Numbered from the stretch's first letter, positions 1 to 48,718 are shown. The stretch: DNA of 64,000 bases from an uncultured delta proteobacterium (GCA_963771175.1 CAVYSY010000054.1:64001-128000), one strand, 5' to 3'. Notes: a model not told the origin generated them from the sequence alone. Made by a program: numbers and translations.

Positions 1-1439
<1,439 letters not shown>

Positions 1440-1467
1440 AGCAACTGGAGCAGGGGGACGAGGTGGC

Positions 1468-2382
1468 TCAACCGGCGGCGCCGTAGCGGAGCGCGTCCCG
1501 GCCCACCTGGGTGATGGCCTCGTCTCCCACGCTCGGCCCGTACTGGAGCAGCGCCACTCCGTAGTGGAACGCCCGGAAGCGCGCGCGGTCCCACGTGGCC
1601 TCGTCGATGTCGCCGTAGGCCTCGCGGAACGCTCCGCGGGCCTCCGGCGGCAGGAAGGTGAAGGCGATGCTCAGGTCCACCGCCGGGTCTCCCAGGTGCA
1701 CGTCTCCCCAGTCAATCACCCCCGTCAGCGTTTGGTTCTCGTCCACCAGCAGGTGCCTCGCGTAGAGGTCTCCGTGTACCCAGCAGGCCCGCCGGGTCCA
1801 CGGTGGCGTGTCCACCAGCCGTGATACCCAGGCGCGGATCGTCCCTCCATCCACCTCCGGGTGGAGTGCTTCCACCTTCGCGAGCCGCTCCAGGATGATG
1901 GGGGCTCGTTTGTGAAGGTCGGCACGGGCAAGCTCGTCTCCCGGGCCCCTCGCCAGGGTCTCGTCGTCCACGGGAATGCGGTGCAGCGCCGCCAGGAACC
2001 TCCCGAGGATGGAGGCGTTTCGAAGGCGTTCCTCGGGCGTCAAGGCCACCGTGCACGCGGTGACTCCGGGCAGCATCTCGTAGCCGACGAACGGGTAGGG
2101 GTAGTCCCCTTCGGGGCGACCGAGCCACTCCGGCACGGGAATGCGCAGCGGCAGGTGGGGCGCCAGCCGGGGCAGGATACGTGCCTCGTTCTCCAGCAGC
2201 CCCGCGGCAATCTTGCGGCGCGGGAAGCGGAACACCCAGCATCCGTCCACCACATAGGCCGCGTTGTCCCAGCCCTTGCCCAGCGGCTCCAGCCTCTGCG
2301 GAGCGATCTCCGGGAACTGCCGCTCCACCAATCCAGTGGCGGCCTCTTCCGTCAGGGTGACGTCCGCGTCCCACACAGGCAT
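1468..2382 (-). CDS. Aminoglycoside phosphotransferase (APH)-family kinase
   Basis: MPVWDADV start; GKGWDN; VFRFPR; Brenner motif HGDLYARHLLV; IDWGD; DPAVDL. Confidence 0.85.
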   Translation of the reverse strand: MPVWDADVTLTEEAATGLVERQFPEIAPQRLEPLGKGWDNAAYVVDGCWVFRFPRRKIAAGLLENEARILPRLAPHLPLRIPVPEWLGRPEGDYPYPFVGYEMLPGVTACTVALTPEERLRNASILGRFLAALHRIPVDDETLARGPGDELARADLHKRAPIILERLAKVEALHPEVDGGTIRAWVSRLVDTPPWTRRACWVHGDLYARHLLVDENQTLTGVIDWGDVHLGDPAVDLSIAFTFLPPEARGAFREAYGDIDEATWDRARFRAFHYGVALLQYGPSVGDEAITQVGRDALRYGAAG

Positions 2383-2417
2383 GGCTCTTCCTCTCCCTCG
2401 GCTCGGTGTGGCGTATC

Positions 2418-4065
2418 CTAGTCCGGGATGAGCAGTCGGTGGTGGCGCAGCGCCTTCGCCACGTTCTTCACCGGCGTCTCCGTCAGCGGGCCATAGCCGA
2501 GCGAGCGGATGAATTCGTCCTCGCTCCCCTCCAGCGCCTGCTTCACCGAGTCCATCACCAGCGTCTCCCGGAAGCCCGCCAGCGATTGCAGCCGCGCCGT
2601 CTGGTTCATCCCCGTGGAGAAGCCGGTGTAGTCCGGTTCGGTCCGAAGAGGCCGCAGCATCGTGTGCGCCAGGTTCAGTCCGATCGCCACGCCCAGCCCC
2701 GGCATGCCCCACCCGCTCGCAGATGCTCCGGACCTCCGGGTCCGTGCTCATCGCCGCCGTGGTGCGCCTGGATGTCCAGCGCCGCCGCGCACCAGCGCGC
2801 TCCGCCCGCTCGCGCCGGCCGCTCCGGAAGAAGGGCGGGCCGAACAGGCCGATGACGCAGTCGCCGACCATCTTGTCGAACACGCCTCCGTGCTCGCCAC
2901 AGCAGCTCCACCACCGCTCGCTCCAGCCGTCCACGAAGCGGCCGATGCGCGCCGGGCTCTCCAGACCTGCTCGCACAGCCGGGTGAAGCCGTTGATGTCC
3001 GCGAAGAGGATGCCCACCTCCTCGTCGCGGCTCGTCAGGTAGTGCGTCGCGTAGTCCGGCGATCCTGCAGCAGCTCGTCGATGACGTCCGCGGAGAAGAA
3101 CTGCGAGAGGTGCGATGCGCTCGCGGTTGTAGTCCATCGAGCCGCTGGCTCAGCGTCGAGGCCAGCACCCGCATCAGGTCCATCGTGTAGCTGGAGAAAC
3201 CCGTCCTCGCCCGACCACAGCAGGATCCGGCCCAGCGGCGCGCTGTGCCGGTGGCCGGCGATGAGCACCGCCTCCATCACCGCGAGGCTCTCGCAGCGCC
3301 TCGCTTCAGCCGCTCGTCTCCGCGCGCCAGCAGTTCCGGGCCGTGCGCGCGCAGCACCGCGTCCAGCACCGGCAGGGTCTGCTCGCCCGACTCGTGCTCC
3401 AGGTGCCCGTTGCGGTACGAGCGGTAGTGCAGCACCGAGGGCCTCACCGCGTCCCGGTACACCAGCAGGAAGCCCGGCACCCGCACCCGCTGCGGCCAGC
3501 GCCAGCACCGCCTCGTCCATGCCCGCCTCGAAGACGGGGTTGGCCAGCAGGTGGTTGAGGTGGAGGATGAGCTCCTGCTTCTCGCTCGCGGTGTGCACCA
3601 GCAGCAGCACGGTGTCGAGCTGCTCGGCCACCGTGTCCAGCATGCGCTCCAGCGAGCCCCGGCCTGCTCGGGCGGGTGTGGTCGCCCACCAGGAACAGGC
3701 CGAGGCGCCCCACCGACTGGCCCACCACGTCCAGCGTCCTGGCTCACCACCGTGCCCTCGCCCTCGCGCCGCGTCGCCCAGCGAGTCGGCCAGCAGCGTG
3801 CCCGGGTAGACGCCGCCGAAGTCCCCCGCGTGGAAGGTCTGCTGCGACGAGCTCCTCGTTGCGCGTGGTGACGGCGACGCCCTGCGCCCCCGTCTCCCGC
3901 AGCACCAACGGGCAGCAACCGGTGGAACGTCTGCGCCAGCGAGGCCCGCTCCCGCACGCACTCCTCCAGCAGCGAGTCCACCTCGCGGTTGAGTGCGTGC
4001 AGCATGCGGAGCTCCTCGAGCTCCGACCCGGCGGTGGCCACCGGCGTGGCCCGTGCGACTGTCAT
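2418..4065 (-). CDS. Class III adenylate cyclase with uncharacterised N-terminal sensory region (frameshifted)
   Basis: Motifs in successive frames: ILFADINGFTRLCE, FDKMVGDCVIGLFG, GVAIGLN, YTGFSTGMNQTARLQS. GGGAG RBS before the ATG at 4065. Confidence 0.85.
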
Positions 4066-4089
4066 GACTTCTCCCTGTGGGGCTCCGCC

Positions 4090-6556
4090 TCAGCGGCAGT
4101 TCTGGTTGGCGTCGAGCGCCTCGCGCAGGTTCTGCGGCGGCGGCAGCTTGCGCGCGGCCATCAGCTCCGCGAACTCCTGTGCGTTGGCCACCTGCAGCCG
4201 CGGGTTGGTGCGCTTCTCCCGGCCAATGGTGCTCGCCCGCTGGCCCTGGTAGTCGTGCGAGGGCAGCACCACCGTGTCCTCCGGCAGCGCCATCAGCCGC
4301 TGGAGGCTCTCGTAGAGCTTCGCCGAGCTGCCCGAGGGCAGGTCCGTCCGGCCGCACGCGCCGATCAGCAGCGTGTCCCCGGTCAGCACCCGACCCGGCA
4401 GCACGAGGCACAGCGCGTCCTCGGTGTGGCCCGGCGTGCGCCATCACCTCGATGCGCAGCTTGCCCAGCTGCAGCGTGTCCCCGTCCTGCAGCCGCTTGT
4501 CCACGCACGGCGGAGTCGCCGCCGCGTGCATCACCATCTGCGCCCCCGTCAGCTCCTTGAGGCGCATGCGAGCCCGACAGGTGGTCCGCGTGGGTGTGCG
4601 TCTCCAGCGTGTAGCGCAGCCGCAGCCGCTTGGACTTGAGCAGGTCCAGGTAGTGGTCCACGTGCTCGCGCAGCGGGTCGACCAGCATCGCCTCGCCCGA
4701 GTCCTTGGTCCGCGATGAGGTAGCTGCGGCACGCCCCGTCCGGCTGGAGCACCTCGAACTCGTAGCCGTGGATGTCTCCGTCCGGCTGCGTGGTGTTGCT
4801 CTCCTGGCGTGGACTCCATCCAGCGGTCCGCGCAGCGGCCGGCGAACTCGGCGCTCACCGCGTCGCCCTTCACCTGGTAGTGGCCGCGCCACTTGCGGTC
4901 GCGCACCCGCTGCACGTACTCCAGCAGCCGGTCCACGTCGCTCTCGTCGTTGTAGAGGCCCACGCTCGCGCGCACCGCGCCCGTGGGAGGCGTCGTCTGG
5001 CCCGCGGCTCTTCGCCTTCGCCGCCAGCAGCTTGTCCATGTAGATGTGCGCGCAGAAGCGGCCGTTGCGCACCGCGATGGCGCCCTCCTCGGAGAGCACC
5101 GCCGCCGCCAGCAGGTCCGACACCCCGTCCACGTTGAAGGTGACCACGCCCAGGCGCTTGCTCGCGTCCGGCGGCCCGTAGAGCGGTGATGCCGCCCATC
5201 TCCTGGAGGCCCTTCAGCATGCGCTCCATGAGCGCGCACCTCGTGGGCGCGCACCTCCTCCATGCCGATGGACTGGAGGAACGAGAGCGCGCGCGCCATG
5301 CCCACCACGCCCGCGATGTTCGGCGTGCCGCCATGGTGCCGGTCCGGCGCCGGCGAGGTACTCGGCATCGCGCGGCGTCACCTTCGAGGCCGTGCCGCCA
5401 CCCGGGAGGTACGGCGGCGCCTGGCTCATCAGCGCGCGCGGCCCGTAGAGGAAGCCCGCGCCGAACGGGGCGTAGGCCTTGTGGCCCGCGCCCGCGAGGA
5501 AGTCGATGTGCTCGGCGTCGTCCGGGTCGCTTCACGTCGATGCGGCATGCGCGCCAGCGCCTGCGCCGCGTCGACCAGGATGAGCGCGCCGTTCTCGTGC
5601 GCCATGCGCGCGATCTTCCGCAGGTCCGGCATCGACGCCGGTGACGTTGGAGCCGGCCGTCACCGCCACCAGCTTCACGTCGTTCTTGCGCAGCAGCTCT
5701 TCCAGGTGGTCGAGGTCCAGCTCACCGTCGTCCGTCGACGCGGGCGCGCAGCACGGGGCCGCGGCGGCGGTGGGGCAGCTCGTTGGAGTGGTGCTCCAGC
5801 TCCGTGGTGACGACCTTGCCGGGCCGGTCCGCCATCACGTGGCTGCACAGGTCGATCGCCTGCGTGGTGTTGTTGGTGAAGCACGACGCGCCCCGCGGCG
5901 CAGCTCGGCGTCGAGGTAGTCCGCGACGATGTAGTAGCACTCCTCGAAGCGCTCGGTGGCCTTGCGCGACAGGTGGTGCGTGCCGCGGTGGATGTTGGCG
6001 TACTCGCGCGCCACGAACTCGGTGTAGGCGCTGAGGACCGAGGCCGGCGCGTGCGTGCTGGCCGCGTGGTCCATGTACACCAGCGGCGCTCCCCCGAGCC
6101 GAGCACCGGCACGCAGCGCGCCACGATGGCGAACTCGTGCCGCACGTCGTCCCAGTTGAGCTTCGCGCCGGGAAGCCGGCACACCACCGCGCCGCCGGAG
6201 ATGGGCAGCCCGAGGTGGCGCCAGCGCTCGATGCCGCCGGCGAGGCTGCGCACGTTGGAGTAGCCCATCTTCAGCAGCACGTCGCCCACCATCGCCGAGC
6301 GGTTGCCGGTGGCGCAGTAGACGACGACGGGCGTGTCCCGCTTCGCCACGTGCTCGTGGACGTGCTTCTCCAGCAGTCCACGCGGCAGGCGCACCGCGCC
6401 CTCCAGGGTGCCGTCGGCCATCTCGTCCGACTCGCGGACATCGAGCAGCACCACGTGGTGGCGCGCCTCGGCGCGGCTGAGCTCCTCGGCGGAGATCTCC
6501 GGCACGCGGCTCAAGGCATCCTTGACGAAGTCCTTGTACGTCCAGGCCTGTGACAT
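4090..6556 (-). CDS. Rhodanese / class V PLP cysteine desulfurase (SufS-like) / MBL-fold persulfide dioxygenase fusion (frameshifted)
   Basis: Rhodanese: LLDVRE, YCATGNRS, LAGGIERW. In the same frame follows DVRHEFAIV, then YMDHAAST, NIHRG, FTNNTT, EHHSN, DAAQ, GHK, GGTPN, RNGRFCAH, RASVGLYN. After that: SYLIAD, DPLRE, ETHTHADH, GHT, TGDTLLI, GRTD, PSHDY, EKRTNPRL. Confidence 0.75.
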
Positions 6557-6875
6557 CCTGCCTCCCTGTGGGTGTGGGCTCGTGGTGGCCCGCTCCTCCC
6601 GTGTCGCGGGCACGCACGGAAGGGGGAGCCGGGGCCCCTGATACCACGCCGGGCGCGAAGGGCCACCGGGCATGGAGGGGGCCGGGCGCCAACCCACACC
6701 CGGGGTTGAGGGAGACCTGACGGACGGCTCGCCATGGCTCCCGGGGACGCGGGGATTTCCCGGCTCTTGACGCGGTGTGCGATGCAAGGGGCCCCCTCTG
6801 TCCCCGTGATGTCTTCGAGTACGGCGCTGGTGGCAGCCGCCCGCAGTGCCTACACTCCGGGAAGGGCGGACGACC

Positions 6876-7173
6876 ATGACCCTTTCTCAGCACCGACCTG
6901 AGGGATGAGATCGCCATCCCCTATTTCCTCTGGGACGACCCGATGACCGTGGGCGAGCTGCGCGAGCGGCTGCTCACGGCTTCCGAGCCGGAGCGCGTAC
7001 GCTTGATTGGCACCATCCTCCGCGAGGCGCGGGACACGGACGTCTGGGAGTGGGTTGCGCTCGAAGAGGTGGTCCAACTCTGGCCACAGCTCCAGCGCCA
7101 CCTGGGCCGTCGGCGAGCCTTCTGGGAGTTCCTCCTCTCGCGCTGGCGTCGGCAAGGACTCCTGCATGGCTGA
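6876..7173 (+). CDS. Small putative antitoxin upstream of an AbiEii-type nucleotidyltransferase (start uncertain, probable indel near the 5' end)
   Basis: PYFLWDDPMTVGELRERL...ILREARDTDVW...FWEFLL; its stop overlaps the next ATG. Confidence 0.6.
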
Positions 7174-7817
7174 TGCACTCAGCCCCTTTCAGCGGGAACT
7201 CCTCGAAGCCTTCTTTCGCCGCGCACCGGCGTTCTATCTCACCGGTGGCGCGGCCCTGGCGGGCTTCTACCTCGGGCACCGGCGGACGGAGGATCTCGAC
7301 CTCTTCACCACCGAAGATGCCTTGGAGTCCGGGGAGCGCGCTCTCCAGGAGGCAGCGGACGAGCTGGGCTCCTCCGTGGAGCGCCTCCAGACAGCACCGG
7401 ACTTTCGCCGCCGCCTCGTGAGGCGGAGTCATGAGTCGTTGGTGGCGGACCTGGTGCGTGAACGCGTCACGGCGGGTCAGCGCACCAAGGTTCAGCGCGG
7501 CGTCGTCAGGCTGGACTCCGCGGAGGAGATCCTCGCCAACAAGCTCTGTGCACTCCTCTCGCGCGCGGAACTGCGAGATTCTGGTGGACGTCATGGCCCT
7601 GGAGAAAACGGGACTGCGCATCGAGGAGGTTCTCCCGGACGCCATGCGGAAGGACGGGGGGCTGACGCCGGCGCAGCTCGCGTGGGTCCTGTCGGAGTTG
7701 CGCATCGGCGATGACGCGCGCATTCCCGGGCGCCTGTCCGCTGCCGAGGTCCGCACAGGGATCGAGTCCCTTATCGAGCGGCTGACCCGCCTCGCGGCCC
7801 CAGCCAATGGCAAGTAA
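7166..7817 (+). CDS. AbiEii/AbiGii-family nucleotidyltransferase toxin (type IV TA), one frameshift near 7580
   Basis: FYLTGGAALAGFYLGHRRTEDLDLF (G-G...DxD nucleotidyltransferase motif); ANKLCALLSRAELRD, continuing as LVDV in the next frame. Confidence 0.8.
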
Positions 7818-7949
7818 CGCCGTGTCGTCCAGCACGGGCTCGGCCGAGTAGCGCCGCTCCCAGAAGCCGCCACTCCAGTCCTCCAGCCGCCCCACCTTCC
7901 TGGAGAGGTTGGCGCGCAGGTACTGCATGAAGCCGGCGAGCGCGGCCCT
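7816..7949 (-). mobile_element. Internal fragment of a Y1/IS200-like (RAYT-type) transposase
   Basis: RAALAGFMQYLRANLSRKVGRLEDWSGGFWERRYSAEPVLDD matches the FM...G-FW-RY-S segment of HUH Y1 transposases. No HUH motif or catalytic Tyr region is present. Confidence 0.7.
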
Positions 7950-8098
7950 CCTGCAGGCGGGGATTTCCCGACTCTGGACGCGGCGTGCGATGCTCCTTGG
8001 CCGCCCGTTCGGTGGGCCACCAGGAGTCCGATGGAGGCTCCAGCAGGTCGCTCGCCGAGCGCGGAAACCACCCTCTCATTGCTCCAGGAGACTTCTCG

Positions 8099-8647
8099 AT
8101 GCGAACCCACTTCTCCCTCATGACGGCCGCGGCCGTGGCCCTGACGTTCGTGCTCGCTTCGCCCGCCCTCGCGGAGTCAGCCAAGGCCCACGCCGCGGAC
8201 GAGGCCACCATCCGCAAGCAGGTGGCCGATCAGACCGAGGCCTGGAACCGCTCCGACGCGGCGGCCTGGAGCAAGGACTTCGCCCCGGACGCGGCGTTCA
8301 TCAACATCGTCGGAAGCGTCTTCAATGGCCGGGCTGAAATCGAGAAGCGGCACGCCTTCGTCTTCGACACCCTCTTCAAGGGCAGCCGGACCCAGGTGAC
8401 GGTGACGCGGCTCGTCTTCGTCGATGCGAACGTGGCGGTGGTCGACATGGAGCACGTGGTGACCGGGTTCACCGGGCTGCCTCCCGGTGTTCAGTCCACG
8501 GAGCCGGGCGTGCTGAAGACCCGAATGCGGTACGTGATGAAGAAGGCCGGCAAGAAGTGGGAAATCGCCGCCGGCCAGAACACGGACGTGAAGCCCGCGC
8601 CGGCTCCCGCCGTCACTCCGGCCAAGGACGCTCCCGCCGGCAGGTAG
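8099..8647 (+). CDS. Secreted NTF2/SnoaL-like protein (SgcJ/EcaC, DUF4440-like)
   Basis: Signal peptide ending SPALA; AWNRSDAAAWSKDFAPDAAFINIVG...GRAEI; WEIAAGQNT; AGGAG RBS. Confidence 0.8.
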   Translation: MRTHFSLMTAAAVALTFVLASPALAESAKAHAADEATIRKQVADQTEAWNRSDAAAWSKDFAPDAAFINIVGSVFNGRAEIEKRHAFVFDTLFKGSRTQVTVTRLVFVDANVAVVDMEHVVTGFTGLPPGVQSTEPGVLKTRMRYVMKKAGKKWEIAAGQNTDVKPAPAPAVTPAKDAPAGR

Positions 8648-8663
8648 CATGCGGAGTGCCGGC

Positions 8664-8727
8664 TCAGAAGCTCAGGCCGAGGCCGGCGAACGGGTCGCCC
8701 ATCCTGTCCCGGTGCCGCTCCCCGTCC
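8664..8727 (-). repeat. Orphan 64-bp copy of the 3' end of the gene at 18770-19675
   Basis: 61/64 identical to 18770-18833; encodes DGERHRDRMGDPFAGLGLSF*. Confidence 0.95.
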
Positions 8728-8792
8728 TCCGGGAAGGTGTCGAAGGACTCGTTTCGACACCGCGTCCCCTACGAATCGTCTGACACCCTGCC
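8728..8792 (+). repeat. REP/REPIN-like element, copy A
   Basis: AGGTGTCGAAG-GACTCG-TTTCGACACCG palindrome followed by CCCTACGAATCGTCTGACACCCTGCC; related copies at 10880, 13236 and 45654. Confidence 0.85.
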
Positions 8793-8895
8793 TGCCTGGC
8801 GCACAGCCCGGGCGGCACCCGTCAGCGGCCCTCCTCGGCCCCTCGGCACCAGCCCGCCACCCTCAAAAGTGCCCCCATCTTTCCTTGGCTCCTTG

Positions 8896-8958
8896 AGTTT
8901 GTGCCGGGTTTGCGGGAACCCTTCACTGTGAAGGGTAGTCACAAACCCGGCACAAACT
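8896..8958. promoter_or_regulatory. 63-bp near-perfect palindrome upstream of the AlbA_2/ATPase gene (putative operator or hairpin)
   Basis: Outer arms AGTTTGTGCCGGGTTTG / CAAACCCGGCACAAACT; inner arms ACCCTTCAC-T-GTGAAGGGT. Confidence 0.65.
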
Positions 8959-8980
8959 TCTGGGTGAGGCACCAGCGGCC

Positions 8981-10814
8981 ATGCAGCGGATTCGAGAGGA
9001 AGTCGAGGTGGCGCTCAGCGGGGTGCTGGCGGGAACGGCCGCACACAAGCTGGAGTCCCCCACCTTGGACTTCAAGGAGCAGGGCCAGGGCGGGCTCAAG
9101 GATTTCATGCCGGGACATCGCGGGCGATGCCGTTTGCTTCGCGAACGCGGGTGGTGGAGCCATCATCATTGGGGTCGACAACAAGCAGGCGGGCCCGCAG
9201 GCATTCAAGGGAACCGACCTCGATTCCGAAGACGTCCGTAGGCGCGTCTACGAACTGAGCAACCCGCCCCTGCTCGTCGAGGCCGAGAACCGGCAATTCG
9301 CGGGTGCTCGTCTGCTCATCCTCTTCGTGCAGCAGAGCATCGATGTCCATGCGGACACTCAAGGGCGGGCCCGGCGCCGTGTGTCGACGGACTGCCTTCC
9401 CATGAGCCCCGACGAGGTGGCCCGTCTGCGAGAGGAGCGCCGGGACTTCGACTGGTCGAGCCAGCCTGGTGAGCGCACGCTCAGCGACGTGTCCCCGATA
9501 GCGCTCGAGGCGGCGCGCCGAAGCCTCGCCACCCTCACGGATGAGACGCGCCGCAAGTATGCGCGTCTCAGCGATCACGACTTGTTGAAGGCGCTCGGGG
9601 TTGTCTCGGAGAAGGGCGCTCTCCTTCGTGCTGGGGAACTGCTCTTCTGCGAAACATCCTGGTCTCCCTTGCTCCAGTACCACTACCGCCAGACACCGGG
9701 TGGCGAGCCTCGTGCCATCGAGCGCATCGAGACACCCCTCGTCCTTGCATTTGAAAAGGTGTTGGGGCTGGTGCAGGCCCGGCTCAATCAGACGCCGATA
9801 TCGCTTCCCAATGGCCAGCAGATCGAAATCGCGGACTTCCCCCAACTGGCTATTCGCGAGGCTATTGCCAACGCCCTCGTCCACCAGGACTTCCGCCTGC
9901 GTCGACCCGTCTTCATCGACCACTCCCCCGAGGTCTTCGTGGTCACCTCACCGGGACCGCTCGTCTCTGGAGTGACTCCTGAGAACATCCTGACGCATCC
10001 ACCCAGGCCGCGTAATCGCACCCTGGCCAAAGCTGCACGCACCCTGGGGTTCGCCGAGGAAGCCGGGCGAGGCGTGGATCGCATGTACCGGGAGATGATC
10101 CGTTCCGGGCGTGACCTTCCCCGAATCGAGGCTTCCTTCGAGCAGGTTCAGGTGAAGCTGGTTGGAGGTGCGCCCAGAACGCAGATCACCCGATTCGTTG
10201 CCCAACTCCCAGAACACGAGCGCGATGACACGGATACCCTGCTGATTCTCTTCCGCCTCTGTCGGAGCAAGACGGTCACGGCGTTGGAGATGGCACCCAT
10301 GCTGCAGAGGTCGGTGGACGAGGCCGAGGCGAGCTTGCGGCGACTCACGAACGACGAGTTGGCCATCCTGGAAGCCACTCGACAGACCGCACGCCTCGCT
10401 CATCCCGCATACCGACTGCGGGGCGAGGTGCTCAAGCGGCTCGGCTCGGCCGTGGATTACCAACGCCGAACCACGGACGAGTTGGATCGAAAAATCATTA
10501 CGCACGTCCGTGAATACGGAAAGGTGAACAATCGTACTCTGCAGAACTTCTTCGACGTGGATGTGCAGCGTGCACGCGACATCCTCTCGGACATGGTGGA
10601 GCGGCAGCTTCTGGTGAAGATTTCCGAGCAGCAACGGGGGCCCTCCGTGGAGTATGGTCCTGGGCCCAAGTTCCCCGGCAAGCGCAAGTCTCGCGCGAAG
10701 GGAACTCGGATGGACAAGCAGCGTGTCCGTTCCGCATCGCAAAAGAAAGACACCAAGACGCTGCCTCTGCCACTCAAGCCTCGCAGGCGAAGCAAGCCAC
10801 GTGGTAGCTCCTGA
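8981..10814 (+). CDS. AlbA_2 (Schlafen-like) + HATPase_c_4 (RecG-C-like) + winged-HTH protein, one frameshift near 9110
   Basis: ESPTLDFKE; VCFANAGGGAIIIGVDN; AIREAIANALVHQDF; SPGPL; PRNRTLA; EEAGRGVDRM; C-terminal HTH-like segments. Lower GC than its neighbours. Confidence 0.85.
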
Positions 10815-10879
10815 CGTGGTGCTTTGGGCTCAGCGGGTGAACCGTTCCGCCGCCGGAGCGCCGCCATCCTCGATCCGCT

Positions 10880-11040
10880 GGCAGGGTGTCGGACGAGTCG
10901 TAGGGGGCGAGGTGTTGGAACAAGTCCTTTGACTCGACTTTCACCATTTTTGACCGGCTCCCTCTGGCCTCCCTCTGGGAAGACGCCTCGTTCTTCCCTC
11001 TGAGGCGCCCAAAATGGCGAAAGTCGAGTTTGACACCTGA
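10880..11040 (-). repeat. REP/REPIN-like element, copy B (inverted relative to A), interrupted by a MITE
   Basis: Reverse complement reads ...TCAAAGGACTTGTTCCAACACCTCGCCCCCTACGACTCGTCCGACACCCTGCC. The terminal TTTGACACCTG is displaced to 11029-11039. Confidence 0.85.
10933..11028. mobile_element. 96-bp MITE-like insertion with 18-bp TIRs and a TTTGA direct repeat
   Basis: TIRs CTCGACTTTCACCATTTT and AAAATGGCGAAAGTCGAG (17/18 match); TTTGA at 10928-10932 and 11029-11033. Confidence 0.75.
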
Positions 11041-11074
11041 TACTGATACTGGGGACGTGGCCTCGAACCGAGCG

Positions 11075-11154
11075 CCAAGAGGGCCGTGCGCGCTCACGCA
11101 GTAGCCGCATCCATTCAGCTCGGACACGTGGAAGGTCTTGAGCGCGCTGGACAT
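11075..11154 (-). pseudogene. AhpD/carboxymuconolactone decarboxylase-like remnant
   Basis: VSELNGCGYCVSAH matches the NGCxYCxxxH motif; only about 25 codons remain. Confidence 0.55.
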
Positions 11155-11174
11155 TACAGCGCCCTCATCCCTCT

Positions 11175-11363
11175 TCAGCAGCAGGCCCCGCCGACCTCCC
11201 GAACCGTGCTCCGGTACTGCACGGCAGCCATGGTCGGACCACACGGGTACACGCCGAAGTGCGTGGTGCGTGAGCCCAGGACCGAGGCAAGCAGCTTGCC
11301 GTAGTACTCGCTCACGAACGCCTGAAGGTTCTGCTGGCCTGGTTCCGCCGGGTTTTCCTTCAT
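11175..11363 (-). pseudogene. Internally deleted ArsM-like methyltransferase remnant
   Basis: N-terminal-type VSEYYGKLL joined directly to C-terminal-type THFGVYPCG...GGACC*; no SAM-binding core. Confidence 0.45.
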
Positions 11364-11432
11364 GTGGGACCGCTCCTTGGAAGGCACGGTCTCCAAGCCA
11401 CGCGGTTCGTTACACGGGGCGCGCCACGCGCT

Positions 11433-11675
11433 TCATTTCTGCTCCGGAGGCGCCATCCCGCGCAAGCGCCTGAGGAGCTCGGCCTTCACCTCCGGAGGCA
11501 CCTGCTCCTGAGGGAGCTGGCCGAGCGTGCGCGCCGTCATCTTCATCTGCCGCAGGTAGGCCCGACAGTGCCGGCACATGCCCAGGTGCATCAGAAATTG
11601 GACTCGCCGCCAAAGGGACATGCGTCCCTCGAGGTATTCGGTAACGAGTTCTGTGAGCTGCTGGCAGGTGAGCAT
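11433..11675 (-). CDS. Zinc-finger (zf-HC2/ZAS) anti-sigma factor
   Basis: MLTCQQLTELVTEYLEG...HLGMCRHC (HxxxCxxC); directly downstream of the ECF sigma gene. Confidence 0.9.
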   Translation of the reverse strand: MLTCQQLTELVTEYLEGRMSLWRRVQFLMHLGMCRHCRAYLRQMKMTARTLGQLPQEQVPPEVKAELLRRLRGMAPPEQK

Positions 11676-11681
11676 GAGCGT

Positions 11682-12374
11682 CTACTTTCGTTCCACGTAC
11701 TCTTCAAGCACCGCCCGCAGCTTCGAGCGCGCCCGATGCAGGAGCACGCGCTGGTTGGTCTCGGAGATGCCCAACACGCTACACACCTCATTGGAGTCGA
11801 GACCGTCGATGTCCCGAAGGGTCACCACGACGCGCTGGTTCGCAGGCAGCGCCGCGATCTCCTCCTCCAATCGCCGCAGCGCCTGTTTTCTTATCAAGAT
11901 CTTGTCCGACGTGTCGTCTTCCCACCGACCCGGTGGGAGTCTCCACATCCCATTCGACTGAAACCGCGCTGGATCTACGGCGGGCTCGTACTCGCCAGAG
12001 GGATCCGCCAGGCCCGAGAACGACACCGTGCGACTCTCGCGCTCCCCGCGCGTCTTCGCCCGGTTGGTGAGGATGCGGAAGATCCACGTCTTGAGCGTCG
12101 AGCGGCCCTCGAACGTAGCCAGTCCGTCGAGGACGCCCACCCAGGTTTCCTGAACGACCTCCTCGGCCACTGCGCGGTTGGGGGTGAAGACGAGGGCCAG
12201 ACGAAGGAGGGGCCCATGGTAGCGATCGATCAACTCCGAGAATGCCCGCTCGTCTCGCGCACGAAGACGCTCGACCAGGGCAAGGTCGCCCGCGGCCGGA
12301 ACGTCCGCCATGGGCACCGTGTCCTGCTCGGTGGCGACACCGCCGGGAGCGGCCATTTTCGCTCGGTCACTCAT
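11682..12374 (-). CDS. ECF RNA polymerase sigma factor
   Basis: AEEVVQETW, FEGRSTLKTWIFRILTN, LPANQRVVVTLRD, NQRVLLHRAR. Start codon uncertain (12374 or 12311). Confidence 0.9.
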   Translation of the reverse strand: MSDRAKMAAPGGVATEQDTVPMADVPAAGDLALVERLRARDERAFSELIDRYHGPLLRLALVFTPNRAVAEEVVQETWVGVLDGLATFEGRSTLKTWIFRILTNRAKTRGERESRTVSFSGLADPSGEYEPAVDPARFQSNGMWRLPPGRWEDDTSDKILIRKQALRRLEEEIAALPANQRVVVTLRDIDGLDSNEVCSVLGISETNQRVLLHRARSKLRAVLEEYVERK

Positions 12375-12668
12375 GCAAGCCTCACAGGCCCGCCAGGACC
12401 GTCCTCCTTCTAAAGACCGTGTGGCCCAGGCTAGCGCGAAGCGTGCGCTCTCGTCCATGTTCCCCTCCCCATGTAACGGACGGCGCGTTGCCGTGACTGT
12501 GCGGCATGAACACGAGCGTGCGGGGGCGCGGGCCGCGCCGGCGCTTGAGATGCTTACGTGTGTAACGGTTGGAGGGCTCCGAGGACAGTGAGGTGTGGCC
12601 CAATTCCTGAGCCGCTCGTTGTCGCCTCTCGGCGATGAACCAATGCCAGTTCCATCAGATAGGACATC

Positions 12669-13157
12669 ATGAAGAATTTCGTGCGACGCAGTGTTCTCCC
12701 CCTGCTGCTTGCAGTCACGCCAATGGTGGGTTGTGGTCCCAGCCAAGGCGCGCCGGACATGGGCGAAAGCGGCGATGACCTCGCCGAGCTCGGGGCTGCC
12801 CTGGTTACCCAGAATCAGGTCCCGGGCATCTACAACGCCACGTTGAAGCGCGTTCGAATCAAGACGTGCACCGCGGGAGGCTTCTGCTCCGTCACCACCG
12901 AGGAGAGAGCCGCATCCGCGGTCTTCACCCTCAACACGGATGGGACCTATTCCTGCACCGGTGCGGACTGCTTCCTGACCTCGGGGACCTGGGCGTTCCC
13001 GCCCTTCGGTGACTGGCGGTACCTCTCCTTCTCCAACGGGGGAGCCAAGGTGGGCGAGGCGCTCCTCGGGGTGCCGTCCCTGACGGTCTACTCGGGGACG
13101 ACCGCACCGAACATCACCGGGGTGTACGTGGACTACGTGTACGCCGTCCACCGCTAA
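12669..13157 (+). CDS. Hypothetical lipoprotein
   Basis: Signal peptide with MVGC lipobox-like motif; AGGA RBS; two Cys pairs. Confidence 0.7.
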   Translation: MKNFVRRSVLPLLLAVTPMVGCGPSQGAPDMGESGDDLAELGAALVTQNQVPGIYNATLKRVRIKTCTAGGFCSVTTEERAASAVFTLNTDGTYSCTGADCFLTSGTWAFPPFGDWRYLSFSNGGAKVGEALLGVPSLTVYSGTTAPNITGVYVDYVYAVHR

Positions 13158-13235
13158 GGGTTGCCACACCGGGTTCCCCCACGGCCTCTACACCGGCCCT
13201 GCCTCGGCACCTGGCATGACGCGATCGCCCCGGAC

Positions 13236-13296
13236 AGGTGTCAAAGGACTCCTTCCGTTTCGAAGCCTTTGACACCCTATTTCGACACCCTATTTC
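13236..13296. repeat. REP-like palindrome, copy C, with a 13-bp terminal tandem duplication
   Basis: Perfect inverted repeat GGTGTCAAAGG...CCTTTGACACC; GACACCCTATTTC twice (13271-13296). Confidence 0.85.
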
Positions 13297-14702
13297 TTCA
13301 GGTCGAGCAGGAAGATGTCGCTCTCCCCGTGCGGGGTCAGCATGCCCGTTCCGAAGTCCACCGGTGCGTGGAAGTCCCCGAGGACGGTGCTCTCTCCCTT
13401 GCGATTCACGGCGATGTCCATGGGACGCACGAAGTCCGAGGCGTAGCCACGCACCCACCGGAGGTCTCCGTCGTCACTGTCGAACCGGGCGACGAACAGG
13501 TTGTCCTTGCTGCCCGGCCGGCCCTCCGGGCGTTTCGAGCCGATGCGGTCACCGGTCTCGTAGGTGCCCGTCACCACCACCCCGTTGCCATCATCCATGC
13601 CGAGGGCGCGCCCCGTATGCCCGAAGTGTCTCACCCAGCACTCGTCGCCATCCCGCTCGTAGGCGACGAGGAAGGCGTCATCCCCGCGGCCCGCACGCAC
13701 CGTGTGCCCGCGGAACGGGAAGCTCTCGAAGAAGGAGCCGGTCATCACCACTCGGTTGTCCTGGACGGCCACGTCCGCCGCCACCCCCTTGGCGCCCACC
13801 AGACGCCGTGTCCAGCGGAGGGCGCCTCGTGGCGAGTACTTGCGCAGGAGCGGATCCCCCACCGCCTCGATGGTGACGTGGGTGCCGCTGACGTAGAGGT
13901 TGTCATGTTCGTCCACCGCCAGACCGACATCCAAGGTGCCCAGCTCGCGGTCGAGGGTGCTCCAGAGCGACTCACCCTCGGACGAGAGCTTCACGAGGAA
14001 GCCCGAGGAGCCCTCGGCGTCAAGGGGCCCCTGTCCGAAATCCACGACTCCGTTGTACCAGCCGGTCACGGCGATGTTGCCGGCCCTGTCCGTCACGACC
14101 CGTGTCGCATTGAGGAAGCCCGTGCCGGGGAATCCGCGCGCCCAGAGGAAGCGGCCCTCGCTGTCGAGCTTCACTACGTAGCGCTCGAATGACAGAGGGC
14201 CACCGCCGTAATCGATGGTCGAGTCATTGCCGAGGTAGCCCGCGAGCACGATGTTGCGCTCCTTGTCGACCGCCACCGTCCTCACGTTCGTGAAGGCGCT
14301 GATGAAGGGACCGGGTGGCACAGGAGTGAAGATGCGGAACCACAGCAGCCCGCCATCGGGGCGGTACTTCGCCAGTGCGATGCTGAAGGTTCCATCGGGC
14401 GGCCCGAGGATGGGACCGGTGCCGAAGTCGATGCTCCCGGAGAACTCTGTCAGCACCACGAGGTTCCCATCCGCGTCCCGGACGACGGCGATGGCACGCT
14501 CGTCACCCGTCCCGTCGATGACCCGGACCCAACGGGTCGCGCCGCGCTGGGACGGTGTGGCCCGGCTGGCTTCGAGCTCGGGCTCCTGCTCCGGGAGTGC
14601 TCCGGTTTCCAGGGGCCCTCCGGTTTCCAGGGGCCCTCCGCACGCCAGGCCCACCGCGACCACCCATCCCCATACACCCATCCACCTGGCCCACCGTTTC
14701 AT
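13290..14702 (-). CDS. Beta-propeller (SBBP-like repeat) lipoprotein
   Basis: LAC lipobox; repeated D-x-x-GN-x-x-x-G...DFG-G...VKL-DG-x-x-W units; GGPLET twice near the N-terminus. Confidence 0.8.
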   Translation of the reverse strand: MKRWARWMGVWGWVVAVGLACGGPLETGGPLETGALPEQEPELEASRATPSQRGATRWVRVIDGTGDERAIAVVRDADGNLVVLTEFSGSIDFGTGPILGPPDGTFSIALAKYRPDGGLLWFRIFTPVPPGPFISAFTNVRTVAVDKERNIVLAGYLGNDSTIDYGGGPLSFERYVVKLDSEGRFLWARGFPGTGFLNATRVVTDRAGNIAVTGWYNGVVDFGQGPLDAEGSSGFLVKLSSEGESLWSTLDRELGTLDVGLAVDEHDNLYVSGTHVTIEAVGDPLLRKYSPRGALRWTRRLVGAKGVAADVAVQDNRVVMTGSFFESFPFRGHTVRAGRGDDAFLVAYERDGDECWVRHFGHTGRALGMDDGNGVVVTGTYETGDRIGSKRPEGRPGSKDNLFVARFDSDDGDLRWVRGYASDFVRPMDIAVNRKGESTVLGDFHAPVDFGTGMLTPHGESDIFLLDLKK

Positions 14703-15061
14703 CCTTCCTCCCTCCTCGACGGGCCCGAAGCAGGCCCATGCAAGGGTTGTGCACGGCCAGGAGGCAGAGAAGTGGACGCGAGGGAGGTACAAACGCCGCA
14801 TCCAAGACCCGAGCCGGGTCTGAAGATGGGGAGGGAGCCCACCTTCCTATCCTGGCAAGCATCGGCCGGCCCGGGGCAGGCAGGCTCACGGGACAGGGTG
14901 AACGCTCTCCTCTCGCATCCCTGACTGGGCAGGGAGCGTCCGTCATCGTTGAGATTCAGGCTGACCGGAGTCGGCGCCTCGGCGCGGAGCAGCCGGCATG
15001 CAGGCCATGAGACCTGAACGCCAGAGGCGCTTCCCTCAGCTCATGCTCGAGCGCGGAGCAA

Positions 15062-15685
15062 CTAGCAGGGGCCGGGGCCGGCGTGGACGCCGGTCTTCAC
15101 GCGCCCCTTGAAGATGCCGAGCGCCGCCGCGAAGCCGGTCACGCGCACCTTGCTGTAGCCGCTGACCTGTCCGCCGACGTTGAACCGGAGCGAGCAGTAG
15201 GCCGGCCAGCAGAGCCCGTTGCAGACGGCGGGGTGCCAGACGCCGGTGGTGGAGACGCTCCCCAGCGGCACCCACGAGCCGTTGTAGCCCCAGGCGTAGC
15301 CGGTGATGGCGATGCCCTCGCAGGAGCTCTCGGTCGTGATCGTCGAGGCCGGTACCGCCTCGACGAAGGCCTGGAAGGGCCGGCCGTTGACCTGCTGCAC
15401 CTCGGTGACGAACTTGTTGGCGCACAGCGGCTGGTCATAGGTGCCGTCGTTGGACGTGGCCGCGCTGTCCGCGTAGCCGCAGTTGGGGCTGTAGAAGGTG
15501 ACCGCCGCGCCGTCGGGCTGGGCCAGGCTCACCGCGCTGTCGGTGCAGGACTCGTAGAGGGCCTGCTCCCGGGTCTCCAGGAGCTCGTCCTGGGCCAGGA
15601 GCTGCTCCTCCTCCGTGGGCGCGCCGCACGCGGCCAGGAGCTGGGTTGCTGCGAGGAGGAGGAGGGAGGGGAGGGTGCGCTTCAT
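15062..15685 (-). CDS. Cys-rich hypothetical lipoprotein
   Basis: MKRTLPSLLLLAATQLLAAC lipobox; myxobacterial-style TREQAL motif; AAGGAG RBS. Confidence 0.75.
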   Translation of the reverse strand: MKRTLPSLLLLAATQLLAACGAPTEEEQLLAQDELLETREQALYESCTDSAVSLAQPDGAAVTFYSPNCGYADSAATSNDGTYDQPLCANKFVTEVQQVNGRPFQAFVEAVPASTITTESSCEGIAITGYAWGYNGSWVPLGSVSTTGVWHPAVCNGLCWPAYCSLRFNVGGQVSGYSKVRVTGFAAALGIFKGRVKTGVHAGPGPC

Positions 15686-15814
15686 GTGGGCAACTCCTTC
15701 GTCATGTCGGGTAGTGAGTGGCTGCACCCTGGTAACGGAGTGGGTCGCGCATCTTCCCGCGCCCATTTTCGGGCGGATTTTCCCGGGCCGGCGCTTCATC
15801 GCCCTCGTTTAGAC

Positions 15815-18612
15815 TCAGGGCATGCTGTTGGGATCCGCTGGGTTGCTGCCCGCGGCCCGCTCGTCTCCGTCGAGCACCCCGTCGAGGTCACGATCTACGC
15901 CGATGCGCTGTCCAGACCCCAGGGGCGTGCAGGTATAGGTCAGCACCCCTTTGCCCGCGACAACGAGCGTGCTCAGGGCCGCGTCGGAGATCGGGGGCAC
16001 GGCCTCTCGGTCGCTCTTGAACTGCCCGCCTCCCAGGTAGAGGAACCCCACCTCGTGCTGGGCGAGGCGGCCCTTGGCGACCAGCTCGCACTCGCCCGCC
16101 TCCGCGCGGTCCTTCAGCAAGTGGATGCGGGGCGCCGCGGCCGCATGGTTGTCAGCCGTGAGCGTCACCTGCTGGCCGACGATGGGCGCCAGGTTGCTGT
16201 CGAACGCCAGCATGAACTGCTCCATGTCCCGCTTGGCTTGGACGCCCGCGGGCGTGTGCGGGATGCCGACGGGGTTCAGTGGGCTCTCATCGAACAGGCT
16301 GTTGAACCGGAACAGGTCCGGGATGGTGCCGTCGTGGTTGAAGCCAAAGCCGCGGATCTGCTCCCCGAGGAAGGGATCGGGCCCGAGCGTGTTGGTGGTG
16401 AAGCCCGCGCCGAACATGCCGACCTTCTGGTACATGTTGCGCAGGTGCGGGACCTTGAGGAACTGCGGCTCCCCGTCGAAGGACGAGCGGCCGTCCGTCC
16501 CGAAGAAGCCGGCGAAAGCTCCCTCCCCTGGGTTGGCATGTGGATCGACCCGGTGGCAGGTCTCGCACGAGCCCTGCGGATCGACCGTGGTCCCGAAGAA
16601 GAAGTCCCGCCCTGCCTGCTGAGCAGGTGTGAGCGAGTTATCGAGGTTCCGGATCGGGTTGGGCGGGTAGGTGAGCTGGAGGATGAAGTCGGTGAACTGC
16701 TGCATCTCCGCGTCGGAGAGCTGCGCGGACCGCCCGAGCAAGCTCACGAAGGTGGGGTTGAACTTCTTGAACGCGGCGGCCTCGTCGAAGGCCCCGCTGT
16801 TCGGCTGGGAGCTGGGCGCATCGTTGCCACCGGTGCGGTCGCCGCGCCAGTGCATCGGGCCGTGGTTGGCCATGCCACGCAGGCTCTGCGTCGTCATCGG
16901 CCCCTTCAGCGGGTGGAAATCGGGGTCAAAGCCGAACAGGGGATCGTCGCCGAACGGAGGCAGCGGCGGGACGAAGGGGCCCGGGTTGTTCAGCACGGCG
17001 CCGTCCGGATCGCCCAGGTCCCACGCCAGGCTGTCGAAGTCGCCGAAGATGTGGCAGCTGCCGCAGGACGAGTCACCGTGGCTGGAGCTGCGCCGCGCGT
17101 CGTACAGGAAGGGCCGCCCCGCCACCACGCTGGGGGGCTCGGGGTTGTACATCGGCACGTGAGCCAGCTCGCCGCGCGTGGCGGTGTCGATGATGGAGAT
17201 GGCGTTGTCGAAGCGCGTCAGCACGTACAGGCGCCCGCGGGCCTCGTCCAGCACCATGCCGGTAGGGCCGCCGCCGCTCAGGAGAATCTGGTTGGCCGGG
17301 CCAGGCACGAAGGTGTCGGCCTCGAGCGCGGCGGTGGAGTAGACGCCCAGCCTGGACGAGCCGAAGGCGGCTACGTAGAGGGTGGCGCCGTCTGGAAGTG
17401 ACCGCCATGCCGAGCGGCTGCGCCAGGCTCTTCTCACTCTCCGCATTGGGGAGCGGGGCGCAGCACGTGCCGTAGTCGATGTGCTTGTTGAGGTGGCGCG
17501 GGGTGACGCCCGCGGGGCTCAGCACGGTGATGCGGCTCTCGTGCAGATGCCCCCGGAGCGTGCTGCCGCCGAAGAGGCCCGCGCCCTCGAAGCGCAAGTC
17601 GTTACGCGCCTCGGTATTGCTGACGTACACCTTCCCGTTCACCGGGTTGACGACCATGTTGAACAGCACCGTGCCCACGCCGGAGTAGAAACCACCTGGG
17701 CCCGCGAGCTGCGCCGGCGGATTGGCGTTGGCGTCGATGACGAACACGTCCTTGTCCGGCAGGGAGAACTTCACCTGGTCATCCCACGGGCGGTTCAGCA
17801 CGTCGACCCAGTGCTCGCCGTTGAACTTGACGATGAGCCCCACCTCGGGCGCTGGCACCCCCGCGAGGTTGGTGTTCGGTCCGGGCACGCCGCCGGCTGC
17901 CTCGCCGCCATCGGGCACCTGCAATTCGCTGAGCACCGTGGTGCGATTTCCAGAGTGGAACGCGGCTGCGTAGACACGCGAGCCGTCCGGCGTCACCGCG
18001 AGTGCTCGGGGCGTGTCGCTGAAGAGGGTGAGGATCGTGAGCGGGCTGCCCCCGAGCGAGGTGCCCAGGTGGGCGGCATCGAATATCCAGACATCGGCCC
18101 GGCCGATGCCCGGCGTGGTGAGCTGCGGATCAAAGGGAGCGTTCTGGCCACGGTGGGCGGTCGTGATGAAGGCGCGGCTCTTCCCGGGCCCGGCGAAGAC
18201 GATGTCCCGAGGCTCGTCGCCCACGAGCAGGGTCCGCACGACGCGTCCGCTTCTCTCCGCTCGGGCTGAGCCGCACGACGCTGACGCTGTCGGACAGGTG
18301 ATTGACAACCCAGACCTCCTCGTTGCTCCGGGCCGCGACGGCGACCGGCTCGAGCCCGACGGGCACCGAGGCGCGGTGACGGAGGCCTGGGGTTCCGACC
18401 TGGAAGACCTCGAGGCGGTTGTCGGGTGTATTGACGGCGAAGAGGAGCTTGCCATCCGGCGAGAGCGCGAGCGGGCGGACCTGGCCGCTCTCGAAGAGCG
18501 TGAAGGACGGTGCCACCGAGGGCACACCGCTCGCTGAAGAGCAGATGAATAACGCCGCGATGAGAATGGATTTGGAGATGGCCTGGCTGGCCATCCTCGT
18601 CAGTGCTGTCAT
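15815..18612 (-). CDS. Secreted YVTN/YncE beta-propeller fused to a di-heme cytochrome c peroxidase/MauG-like domain (two frameshifts)
   Basis: [34 protein letters not shown] repeats; two CxxCH motifs (CGSCH, CETCH); TQSLRG, HWRGDR, KVPHLRN. Confidence 0.8.
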
Positions 18613-18769
18613 GATTTCCCCCGTGGCGTTGGTCACTGAGAAGCTCAGTCACCTGCGATGCTGCTGGCCACCTGGGGACGTCTACCGGATGCAAGGTTCG
18701 GAGGGACCAGCCCCTCGGGGCAGGTCCATTCACGATGTTGGCCGTGAAGCGGAATCCTTGGAGCGCAGT

Positions 18770-35379: not shown

Positions 35380-35381
35380 GT

Positions 35382-37411: not shown

Positions 37412-37416
37412 CGACG

Positions 37417-48684: not shown

Positions 48685-48718
48685 GACCCAACCTCCACAT
48701 CGCAAGATTCTACGTTCA

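Follow-up and report, generated by a model that had tools for sequence, protein, structure and literature searches.

Results

The window analysed here is the whole stretch of 64,000 nucleotides (nt) from an uncultured delta proteobacterium (GCA_963771175.1, CAVYSY010000054.1:64001-128000), with positions counted from its first letter. It carries, on the minus strand, a gene in which a rhodanese domain, a SufS-type cysteine desulfurase domain, a cysteine-bearing tail and a persulfide dioxygenase (PDO) domain follow one another (4090..6556; about 817 codons and a TGA, delimited by Pfam matches and by alignment to P0001, an intact Archangium protein of 817 amino acids (aa)). Read directly, this fusion gene starts with the ATG at 6556 and ends with ...NQNCR and the TGA at 4092-4090. 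After a spacer of 24 nt on the same strand (4066..4089), also read directly and containing a GGGAG ribosome-binding-like motif, the ATG at 4065 opens a cyclase gene, and the first-pass annotation was correct in placing a class III cyclase 24 bp downstream. Ahead of both minus-strand starts (6557-6580 for the fusion gene, 4066-4089 for the cyclase gene) there is a similar CCACAGGGAG stretch, in which the ribosome-binding site probably lies; this likeness may be due to chance in a G+C-rich genome.

The rhodanese domain (6218..6493, minus strand; Pfam PF00581, 2.2e-18) contains the loop CATGNRS, with the codon of Cys81 at 6316-6314. Its frame runs unbroken into the N-terminus of the desulfurase (LNWDDVRHEFAIV...), down to about 6087, which bears out the earlier description of a rhodanese in frame with the start of a SufS-like desulfurase. 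The type II (SufS/CsdA-like) pyridoxal-phosphate (PLP) cysteine desulfurase domain occupies 4898..6160 on the same strand, with PLP Lys358 at 5480-5478 and the catalytic Cys499, in GRFCAH, at 5054-5052. It is followed by a C-terminal extension and linker (4750..4897, minus strand) with the motif GRCADRWME at 4840-4814 and Cys572 at 4834-4832. The ETHE1 or type I PDO domain (4093..4749, minus strand) was delimited by matches to the Protein Data Bank (PDB) and by an end-to-end alignment to 4ysb. Coordinates of its sites, all on the minus strand, are 4598-4581 for HTHADH, 4507-4505 for Cys680, 4428-4426 for His706, 4377-4375 for Asp723, 4350-4348 for Arg732 of GRTD, 4257-4255 for His763 and 4098-4096 for Cys816 of NQNCR. 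The PDO motifs THTHADH, GRTD, PSHDY and terminal NQNCR noted in the first pass were all recovered, and the window copy has every key catalytic or conserved residue of the family alignment described below.

In the raw sequence, the gene is not a single open reading frame (ORF). Pfam matches to Aminotran_5 fall into six colinear pieces in alternating frames (profile positions 1-59, 65-106, 157-185, 191-239, 242-284 and 299-349), and Lactamase_B, which covers the PDO region, is found in two pieces on the frame segments. A frameshift-aware alignment of 6556-4093 to P0001 covers 816 aa, 779 of them identical (95.5 %), with 0 stops on the corrected path and 14 frameshifts, of which 12 are +1 nt and two are +2/-1 nt, at 6084, 5896, 5736, 5633, 5542, 5529, 5354, 5233, 5184, 5009, 4807, 4707, 4568 and 4438. 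The earlier claim of one gene without a stop codon between its domains therefore holds after frame correction, but not for the sequence as it stands. Since the frameshift at 4807 lies just beyond the tail motif and exactly at the desulfurase-PDO junction, the continuity of these two domains in the window rests on homologs.

When longer proteins were searched with the rhodanese piece, 157 matches were obtained, and the best 120 of them were considered. The combination of Rhodanese, Aminotran_5 and Lactamase_B, for which an architecture search had been suggested, is carried by 97 of these 120, with lengths of 795-870 aa. Seven more have two domains and a length of about 580-630 aa, and the other 16, being fragments or rhodanese-only proteins, were left out. 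Where sources are named, they are Archangium, Myxococcaceae, Cystobacter, Nannocystaceae, Kofleriaceae and 'Deltaproteobacteria'. The family is compact, with members at least 53 % identical to P0001, and it has no curated name other than 'aminotransferase class V-fold PLP-dependent enzyme'.

A scan of genome contigs yielded 79 loci, which were classed by domain-wise tblastn. Seventeen are complete three-domain loci (L001-L008, L010-L013, L015, L016, L018, L019 and L028) and three more are truncated by contig ends (L009, L021 and L030). Rhodanese, desulfurase and tail are encoded at nine loci (L014, L023-L027, L029, L031 and L032), desulfurase and tail at four (L017, L020, L022 and L059), and the desulfurase only at the remaining 46. 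In all 17 complete loci, a single ORF spans the whole match including the desulfurase-PDO junction, so that a stop around the counterpart of window position 4810 is found in none of these homologs. Such a stop had been named beforehand as the sign of separate genes. The fusion is genuine and represents one tightly conserved, mainly myxobacterial protein family.

Two groups of two-domain loci deserve mention. At the Cystobacter fuscus locus (L014), which has a rhodanese-desulfurase-tail gene, homology to the window ends at 4808, just past RCADRWME. The Cystobacter-named proteins P0021 and P0030 are two-domain forms as well, suggesting that the Cystobacter lineage lost the PDO domain. Four two-domain loci from Planctomycetota (L027, L029, L031 and L032) share a TSCPD gene and ribosomal protein L9 upstream and a succinyl-CoA-ligase-type gene downstream, a context that looks more like clade synteny than like function, although the TSCPD protein may be a functional partner.

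Residue conservation was assessed in an alignment of 97 full-length members, using the numbering of P0001. Invariant in all 97 are the PLP Lys358 and Cys499 in GRFCAH of the desulfurase, R571, C572, A573, D574, W576, M577 and E578 of the tail, and H650, H652, D654, H655, Cys680, H706, D723, R732, H763, Y765, Asn813 and Cys816 of the PDO domain. Cys126, in the first linker, and Cys712 are kept in 92 members.

The rhodanese domain is above the PF00581 cut-off of 22.2 bits both in the window piece (67 bits) and in P0001 (64.5 bits), and the window copy has the catalytic cysteine of a C-x-x-G-x-R-type loop. The desulfurase domain matches SufS structures in the PDB at 7e-67 to 1e-53, with Foldseek template modelling (TM) scores on the target of 0.86-0.90. 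Its scores remain below the curated cut-offs for sufS (TIGR01979, 326.3 against 475.1 bits), PRK09295 (232.9 against 661) and CsdA (202.7 against 607). The domain is thus SufS-like in fold, yet it is no curated SufS or CsdA. The top PDB matches 8odq and 9ddd were considered as encapsulin cargo enzymes and rejected, as they are SufS-SufU complexes of M. tuberculosis.

For the PDO domain, the closest PDB matches are 9rhq (1.2e-48), 8zbd (1.1e-46), 4ysb (1.1e-45), which we take to be the Myxococcus xanthus PDO, and the PDO-rhodanese fusion BpPRF (4.4e-45), followed by human ETHE1 (4chl, 1.3e-41) and an Arabidopsis protein (2gcu, 3.4e-37). It is closer to PDOs than to glyoxalase II (1.1e-23), and the GSH_gloB model reaches 108.9 bits, below its cut-off of 200.8. 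The PDO domain of locus L016 can be aligned with 4ysb over its whole length, up to the terminal N-x-x-C, and full-length alignments to 9rhq, BpPRF and 8zbd likewise take in the terminal Cys. The metal ligands of the metallo-beta-lactamase fold (HxHxDH, His, Asp, His), GRTD and the terminal NxxC are present in the PDO domain of all 97 members. For these positions, the iron-ligand assignment of ETHE1 presumably applies. A His2Asp triad is described for CstB in PMC12934615. The domain is therefore classed as type I and ETHE1-like, and Fe(II)- and O2-dependent oxidation of persulfide is its predicted reaction.

An AlphaFold2 (AF2) model of P0001 built with the family alignment has a mean predicted local distance difference test score (pLDDT) of 84.6 and a predicted TM score (pTM) of 0.64. 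Foldseek returned only single-domain SufS matches for this model (TM on query 0.45), and no solved multi-domain relative was found in the PDB. The tail extension also occurs in relatives without the PDO domain.

The gene neighbourhood was examined with Pfam for two genes on either side at 30 loci, giving 117 proteins. Of the 19 loci that keep their 3' end, four (L001, L004, L005 and L021) have a TauE/SafE sulfite exporter as the next gene downstream on the same strand, either overlapping the end of the fusion gene or beginning 4-10 nt beyond it. The exporters of L001 and L004 are 84 % identical, while those of L005 and L021 are distant (51-53 %). This adjacency fits oxidation of persulfide to sulfite and export of the product. 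Besides TauE, there is no generally conserved neighbour in the 30 loci; single cases are a LysR regulator (L005), a PALP enzyme (L007), a sulfatase (L012) and a Pyr_redox_2 protein (L013). SufE, SufU or CsdE acceptors and suf genes were found neither among the 117 neighbours nor in the window scans. In the window, Pfam scans of 7 and 76 ORF pieces detected no suf, isc, moa or thiolation genes, in agreement with the first-pass annotation, and no TauE or sulfide:quinone oxidoreductase (SQR).

The same trio of domains also occurs in other arrangements. Among 1.84 billion cluster representatives, all searched with phmmer, one with the same order was recovered, P0241 (827 aa). In P0242 (886 aa), a type I PDO and a rhodanese precede a SufS-like desulfurase of the fusion family, whose tail ends in RCNDAWME; identity is 49 % over residues 4-579. 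P0282 (768 aa) consists of a BpPRF-like PDO-rhodanese part (8.8e-39, residues 5-359) and an IscS/NifS-type desulfurase (2e-80). In the truncated P0276 (746 aa), a PDO-rhodanese-rhodanese part similar to 3tp9 and 3r2u (3.2e-76), with a PDO that we take to be CstB-like, is followed by a SufS-type desulfurase. Judged by their sequences, P0242, P0282 and P0276 appear to be permuted or independently assembled fusions. The differing domain orders and desulfurase classes point to a functional coupling of desulfurase, rhodanese and PDO.

Discussion

It is known that SufS-type enzymes, which need an acceptor, form alanine and a persulfide on the enzyme, and that PDOs oxidise persulfide to sulfite. We consider it probable, although far from certain, that the 817-aa protein combines these activities as an O2-dependent enzyme converting cysteine to alanine and sulfite or thiosulfate via an enzyme-bound persulfide, that the frameshifts of the window copy are errors and that the cyclase is no partner of it. 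Based on the conserved residues and the established chemistry of SufS, the PLP domain would convert L-cysteine to L-alanine and load the sulfur as a persulfide on Cys499. The sulfane sulfur could then be passed on by a mobile cysteine, namely Cys572 of the tail and, where present, Cys81 of the rhodanese, and reach the PDO either without an intermediate or through a small thiol, e.g. glutathione. The PDO domain would oxidise it with O2 to sulfite, which the rhodanese might combine with a second persulfide to give thiosulfate. In some lineages, the adjacent TauE permease, probably co-transcribed, may export the product. The net result would be that cysteine sulfur is removed in an O2-dependent way and no free sulfide arises, which would serve cysteine catabolism or detoxification. 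Parts of this scheme have precedents. Transfer of cysteine-derived persulfide was shown biochemically for a natural desulfurase-rhodanese fusion, according to PMC8931425, and CstB, as described in PMC12934615, oxidises the persulfide of its own Cys201 and hands the S-sulfonate to its fused rhodanese, yielding thiosulfate. The first-pass proposal of a module that makes, relays and oxidises sulfane sulfur is consistent with the conserved domains and residues and with TauE, whereas its signalling and cAMP half did not stand, as discussed below.

Several observations weigh against this interpretation. The position of the rhodanese Cys81 is occupied by cysteine in 66 of the 97 members, by serine in 30 and by aspartate in one. 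Therefore, a relay through the rhodanese cannot be obligatory, as the residue is serine or aspartate in 31 members, and this varying cysteine does not define the fusion family. pLDDT values below 50 are found only at residues 562-587 of the AF2 monomer, which is the region of the invariant tail motif, so that the tail is conserved but not fixed in the monomer. No PDO lies within about 8 kb of the nine rhodanese-desulfurase-tail loci and the four desulfurase-tail loci; these 13 loci indicate that tail and desulfurase also work without a fused PDO. With the fusion protein, all curated NCBIfam models stay below their cut-offs. TauE is limited to four of the 19 informative loci and absent from the window scans, and L001 and L004 do not count as independent cases because they are close relatives. 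Both substrate and product of the family are predictions from sequence. Decay of the window copy, which is considered further below, would also speak against this interpretation. As a separate observation, many family members in which Cys81 is replaced end in ...NQRCLE.

A more specific version can be put forward tentatively, and we regard it as possible, not as probable. In this case, the protein would be a self-contained 'cysteine sulfur oxidase' independent of a thiol cofactor, in which Cys572 on a swinging tail receives the sulfur from the desulfurase and its persulfide inserts directly into the iron site of the PDO. The product would be sulfite, or thiosulfate by way of the rhodanese, with neither free sulfide nor glutathione persulfide being formed. 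Such enzymes would have been assembled at least four separate times, in four domain orders and with two desulfurase types.

A comparison with known systems helps to place the fusion. It resembles the type II desulfurases SufS and CsdA in its PLP fold, in the lysine within GHKAYAPFG and in the cysteine within an R-x-G-x-x-C-A-type loop (GRFCAH). It differs from them in scoring below the SufS cut-off, in having no sufE, sufU or sufBCD nearby in the scans, and in its invariant cysteine-bearing C-terminal tail and the fused rhodanese and PDO. The PDO domain, in turn, is like ETHE1 and other type I PDOs (4chl, 4ysb and 9rhq) from end to end, with HxHxDH, PGHT, TGD, GRTD, HDY and the terminal N-x-x-C. 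Unlike them, it is the C-terminal domain of a desulfurase, which suggests that its persulfide is delivered by the protein, rather than or besides arriving as free glutathione persulfide.

PDO and rhodanese are also joined in one chain in BpPRF (5ve3) and in S. aureus CstB. In these proteins, the PDO is N-terminal and the rhodanese C-terminal, in contrast to the order rhodanese, desulfurase, PDO found here, and the NCBIfam model for bifunctional ST/SDO proteins (NF040641) gives the fusion 101.1 bits, below its cut-off of 625. According to PMC9163753, every rhodanese-fused PDO in sqr-pdo clusters is of type III, whereas the PDO of the fusion family is ETHE1-like.

Another relevant group of desulfurases is COG1104, which we take to be the IscS/NifS type. 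It was with COG1104 that, according to PMC8931425, its authors found a fusion from Pseudorhodoferax sp., which like the present family has desulfurase and rhodanese in one chain and is a PLP homodimer that passes cysteine-derived persulfide onward. It differs in that its rhodanese follows its desulfurase, the size is about 54 kDa and there is no PDO; the words 'dioxygenase' and 'lactamase' are absent from the text of PMC8931425. A SufS-type desulfurase is genetically linked to a rhodanese in the desulfurase-encapsulin operons as well (family 2A cargo; PMC10925157). The family 2A cargo model NF041166 is the second-best NCBIfam match of the fusion, although its 254.4 bits remain below the cut-off of 800, and neither encapsulin nor serine acetyltransferase was found among the 117 neighbours at 30 loci. 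The fate of the sulfur would also differ, being stored as elemental sulfur in the encapsulin operons and oxidised in the scheme proposed here.

The literature search yielded papers on PDO-rhodanese fusions, on a desulfurase-rhodanese fusion and on desulfurases and rhodaneses linked to encapsulins, but no publication on a desulfurase-PDO fusion or on the three-domain form; its scope lay outside subscription journals and the supplements of the cited papers (e.g. Tables S6 and S7 of PMC9163753). Hence, the domains are individually known, while their combination, the invariant cysteine tail and the recurrence of the fusion are not described in the literature found. By the routes known so far, bacteria dispose of cysteine sulfur through desulfhydrases that release toxic sulfide, followed by SQR and PDO, or through cysteine dioxygenase. 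If the proposed function is true, a desulfurase and a PDO in one polypeptide would constitute a third route for cysteine sulfur which avoids free sulfide. The fusion would also offer a natural test case for the question, raised in the 2026 CstB work, of PDO action on protein-bound persulfides. Moreover, its recurrence in differing orders argues strongly, on comparative grounds, for a cooperation of desulfurase, rhodanese and PDO, also where they are separate proteins.

An alternative is that the fusion serves mainly sulfur assimilation or the handling of persulfide and thiosulfate, as do BpPRF and CstB, and not cysteine catabolism. Variants of this explanation are a detoxification of low-molecular-weight persulfides, a withdrawal of sulfur from thiosulfate, or a desulfurase that supplies or accepts sulfane sulfur for biosynthesis. 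PDO-rhodanese fusions are established, BpPRF is matched at the E-value given above, and CstB makes thiosulfate from two persulfides (PMC12934615). The relatives without PDO imply a PDO-independent role of the desulfurase-tail unit, and the Pseudorhodoferax desulfurase-rhodanese fusion transpersulfidates proteins (PMC8931425). Nevertheless, we consider this explanation unlikely. The PLP lysine and the catalytic cysteine are intact in all 97 members and point to cysteine as the sulfur source, the window and the 117 neighbours hold no suf, isc, moa or thiolation acceptor genes, and the adjacency of TauE points to export of an oxidised product.

A further alternative concerns the window copy and the cyclase gene, which could be true pseudogenes in very recent decay instead of intact genes that were mis-assembled. 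Their frames were followed with a plot of G+C at the third codon position (GC3) and Viterbi segmentation, and the minus-strand segments were translated and scanned with Pfam. As the window has about 70 % G+C, long spurious ORFs abound in it. The coding phase is constant over 6089-6644 and over 1473-2374, with about 18 phase switches between 6088 and 2375, while GC3 is about 0.9-1.0 in every segment. The cyclase gene, aligned to its 542-aa ortholog P0121, covers 540 aa with 486 identical (90.0 %), 21 frameshifts and 0 stops. Together, fusion and cyclase genes thus contain 35 indels in 3.45 kb, mostly of +1 nt, and a comparison with the C. fuscus L014 DNA shows the same positions to be window-specific single-base insertions, mostly outside homopolymers. 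The concentration of these 35 frame-breaking indels in 6084-2634, next to a clean phosphotransferase gene on one side and a clean rhodanese part on the other, would be in line with decay. This explanation, however, has to reconcile them with corrected paths free of in-frame stops, with protein identities of 95.5 % and 90 %, with a GC3 that is high throughout, and with a spectrum of nearly exclusively +1 insertions, which resembles that of errors. Isolated 1-nt insertions are also present in the AMP-binding gene at 1-1420 (at 178, 291, 324, 728 and 1022), and housekeeping-type genes such as that of malic enzyme (53950-56851) are split between frames, as is an Asn-synthase/AMP-binding gene (33820-37697). 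Because the indels are many, nearly all of them insertions, free of stops, combined with high protein identity and spread over several unrelated genes, assembly error fits much better and is most likely the cause of the broken frames, whereas decay appears improbable. With regard to the window as a whole, the insertions occur in patches (2634-6084, 1-1420, about 33.5-41.5 kb and about 52-57 kb), while 24.1-27.8 kb and 57.3-64 kb stay in one frame. These patches look like uneven consensus quality of the assembly.

The first-pass annotation had proposed a persulfide-signalling operon made up of the fusion and the cyclase, with sulfane sulfur modulating cAMP or with cysteine catabolism under the control of cAMP. 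The cyclase gene (2418..4065, minus strand; about 542 aa, 21 single-base frameshifts) encodes a GAF-like N-terminus and a class III adenylate/guanylate cyclase domain at about 3029-2520. Its orthologs P0121 (46 bits) and P0126 (44.5 bits) exceed the Guanylate_cyc cut-off of 21.9 bits, and the window piece alone falls below it (17.9 bits) because of the frameshifts; NCBIfam gives no match for the cyclase. The sensory-type N-terminus, GAF-like on a high-scoring but weak language-model lead, would suit a signalling role, as would the shared strand, the distance of only 24 nt with its GGGAG motif, and the lack of a terminator-like site between the two genes. The scan of 1300-7200 detected no promoter-like site and no minus-strand terminator-like site, although at 70 % G+C it is uninformative. 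The cyclase may be co-transcribed with the fusion gene in the strain of the window.

The distribution of the cyclase in other genomes speaks clearly against the operon. Absence of the adjacency in homologs had been named beforehand as the finding that counts against it, and no Guanylate_cyc protein is present among the 117 neighbours. The orthologs P0121 and P0126 have no tblastn match in the 79 loci, and eight pieces translated from the window, seven of them from the cyclase gene and one of these seven (3865-4064) out of frame, have none at 1e-5. The syntenic C. fuscus locus also lacks the gene: it matches the window at 2-1420 with 85.9 % DNA identity (L014 10536-11950) and at 4808-6566 with 83.0 %, and in place of 1420-4808, which contains the phosphotransferase, the cyclase and the PDO domain, it has about 0.8 kb with an ORF of 194 aa without a Pfam match. 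Furthermore, the cyclase belongs to a conserved family of its own, of about 540 aa, with named members in Archangium, Myxococcus, Corallococcus, Pyxidicoccus and Hyalangium, and the last four genera are absent from the named entries, which are a minority, among the listed matches of the fusion. The operon is not a conserved system and as such is close to refuted; the linkage of persulfide to cAMP has become very unlikely, and the cyclase is, judging from these genomic comparisons, probably a lineage-specific neighbour and not a functional partner of the fusion. Least probable of all is a module that handles selenium, with a selenocysteine lyase and the rhodanese as selenium carrier, because, although SufS/CsdB-type enzymes are also selenocysteine lyases, PDB entries so named (1jf9 and 6ndn) are among the matches and there are weak NCBIfam matches to SclA (137 bits, cut-off 525) and to a rhodanese-related (seleno)protein (48 bits, cut-off 115), these scores are far below their cut-offs, the adjacency of TauE fits sulfite, the neighbour and window scans detected neither selD nor selenoprotein genes, and we know of no role of a persulfide dioxygenase with selenium.

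Other features of the window

Downstream of the cyclase, an aminoglycoside/choline-kinase-type phosphotransferase (APH) gene occupies 1468..2382 on the minus strand in a single intact frame (Pfam PF01636, 2.7e-40). It does not belong to the module and has no tblastn match in the 79 loci. On the plus strand, the partial AMP-binding gene (1..1420, acyl/aryl-CoA ligase-type; Pfam AMP-binding, 9.6e-32) forms the conserved flank shared with C. fuscus.

On the other side of the fusion gene, about 12 kb (6566-18770) have no counterpart in L014, and synteny resumes at 18770. This region encodes an AbiEii-type nucleotidyltransferase (7166-7711), a SnoaL/DUF4440 protein (7985-8644), a Schlafen AlbA_2/HATPase_c_4 protein (8901-10811) and, on the minus strand, a sigma-70-family gene (11685-13169), and its G+C content is lower, with values of 0.61-0.66 at 9.5-12 kb. 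Possibly, the region represents an inserted island that carries defence-type genes. Within 21624-49410, a second region absent from the C. fuscus synteny, a zeta-toxin/AAA_33-like ORF adjoins a ParD-like antitoxin ORF on the minus strand (47711-48849), which is likely a toxin-antitoxin pair.

Finally, the fusion gene of L028 is followed immediately by a malic-enzyme gene on the opposite strand (10467-12059), and such a gene is also found in the wider neighbourhood in C. fuscus and in the window, where it is the frame-split gene mentioned above. This proximity probably reflects old synteny rather than function.

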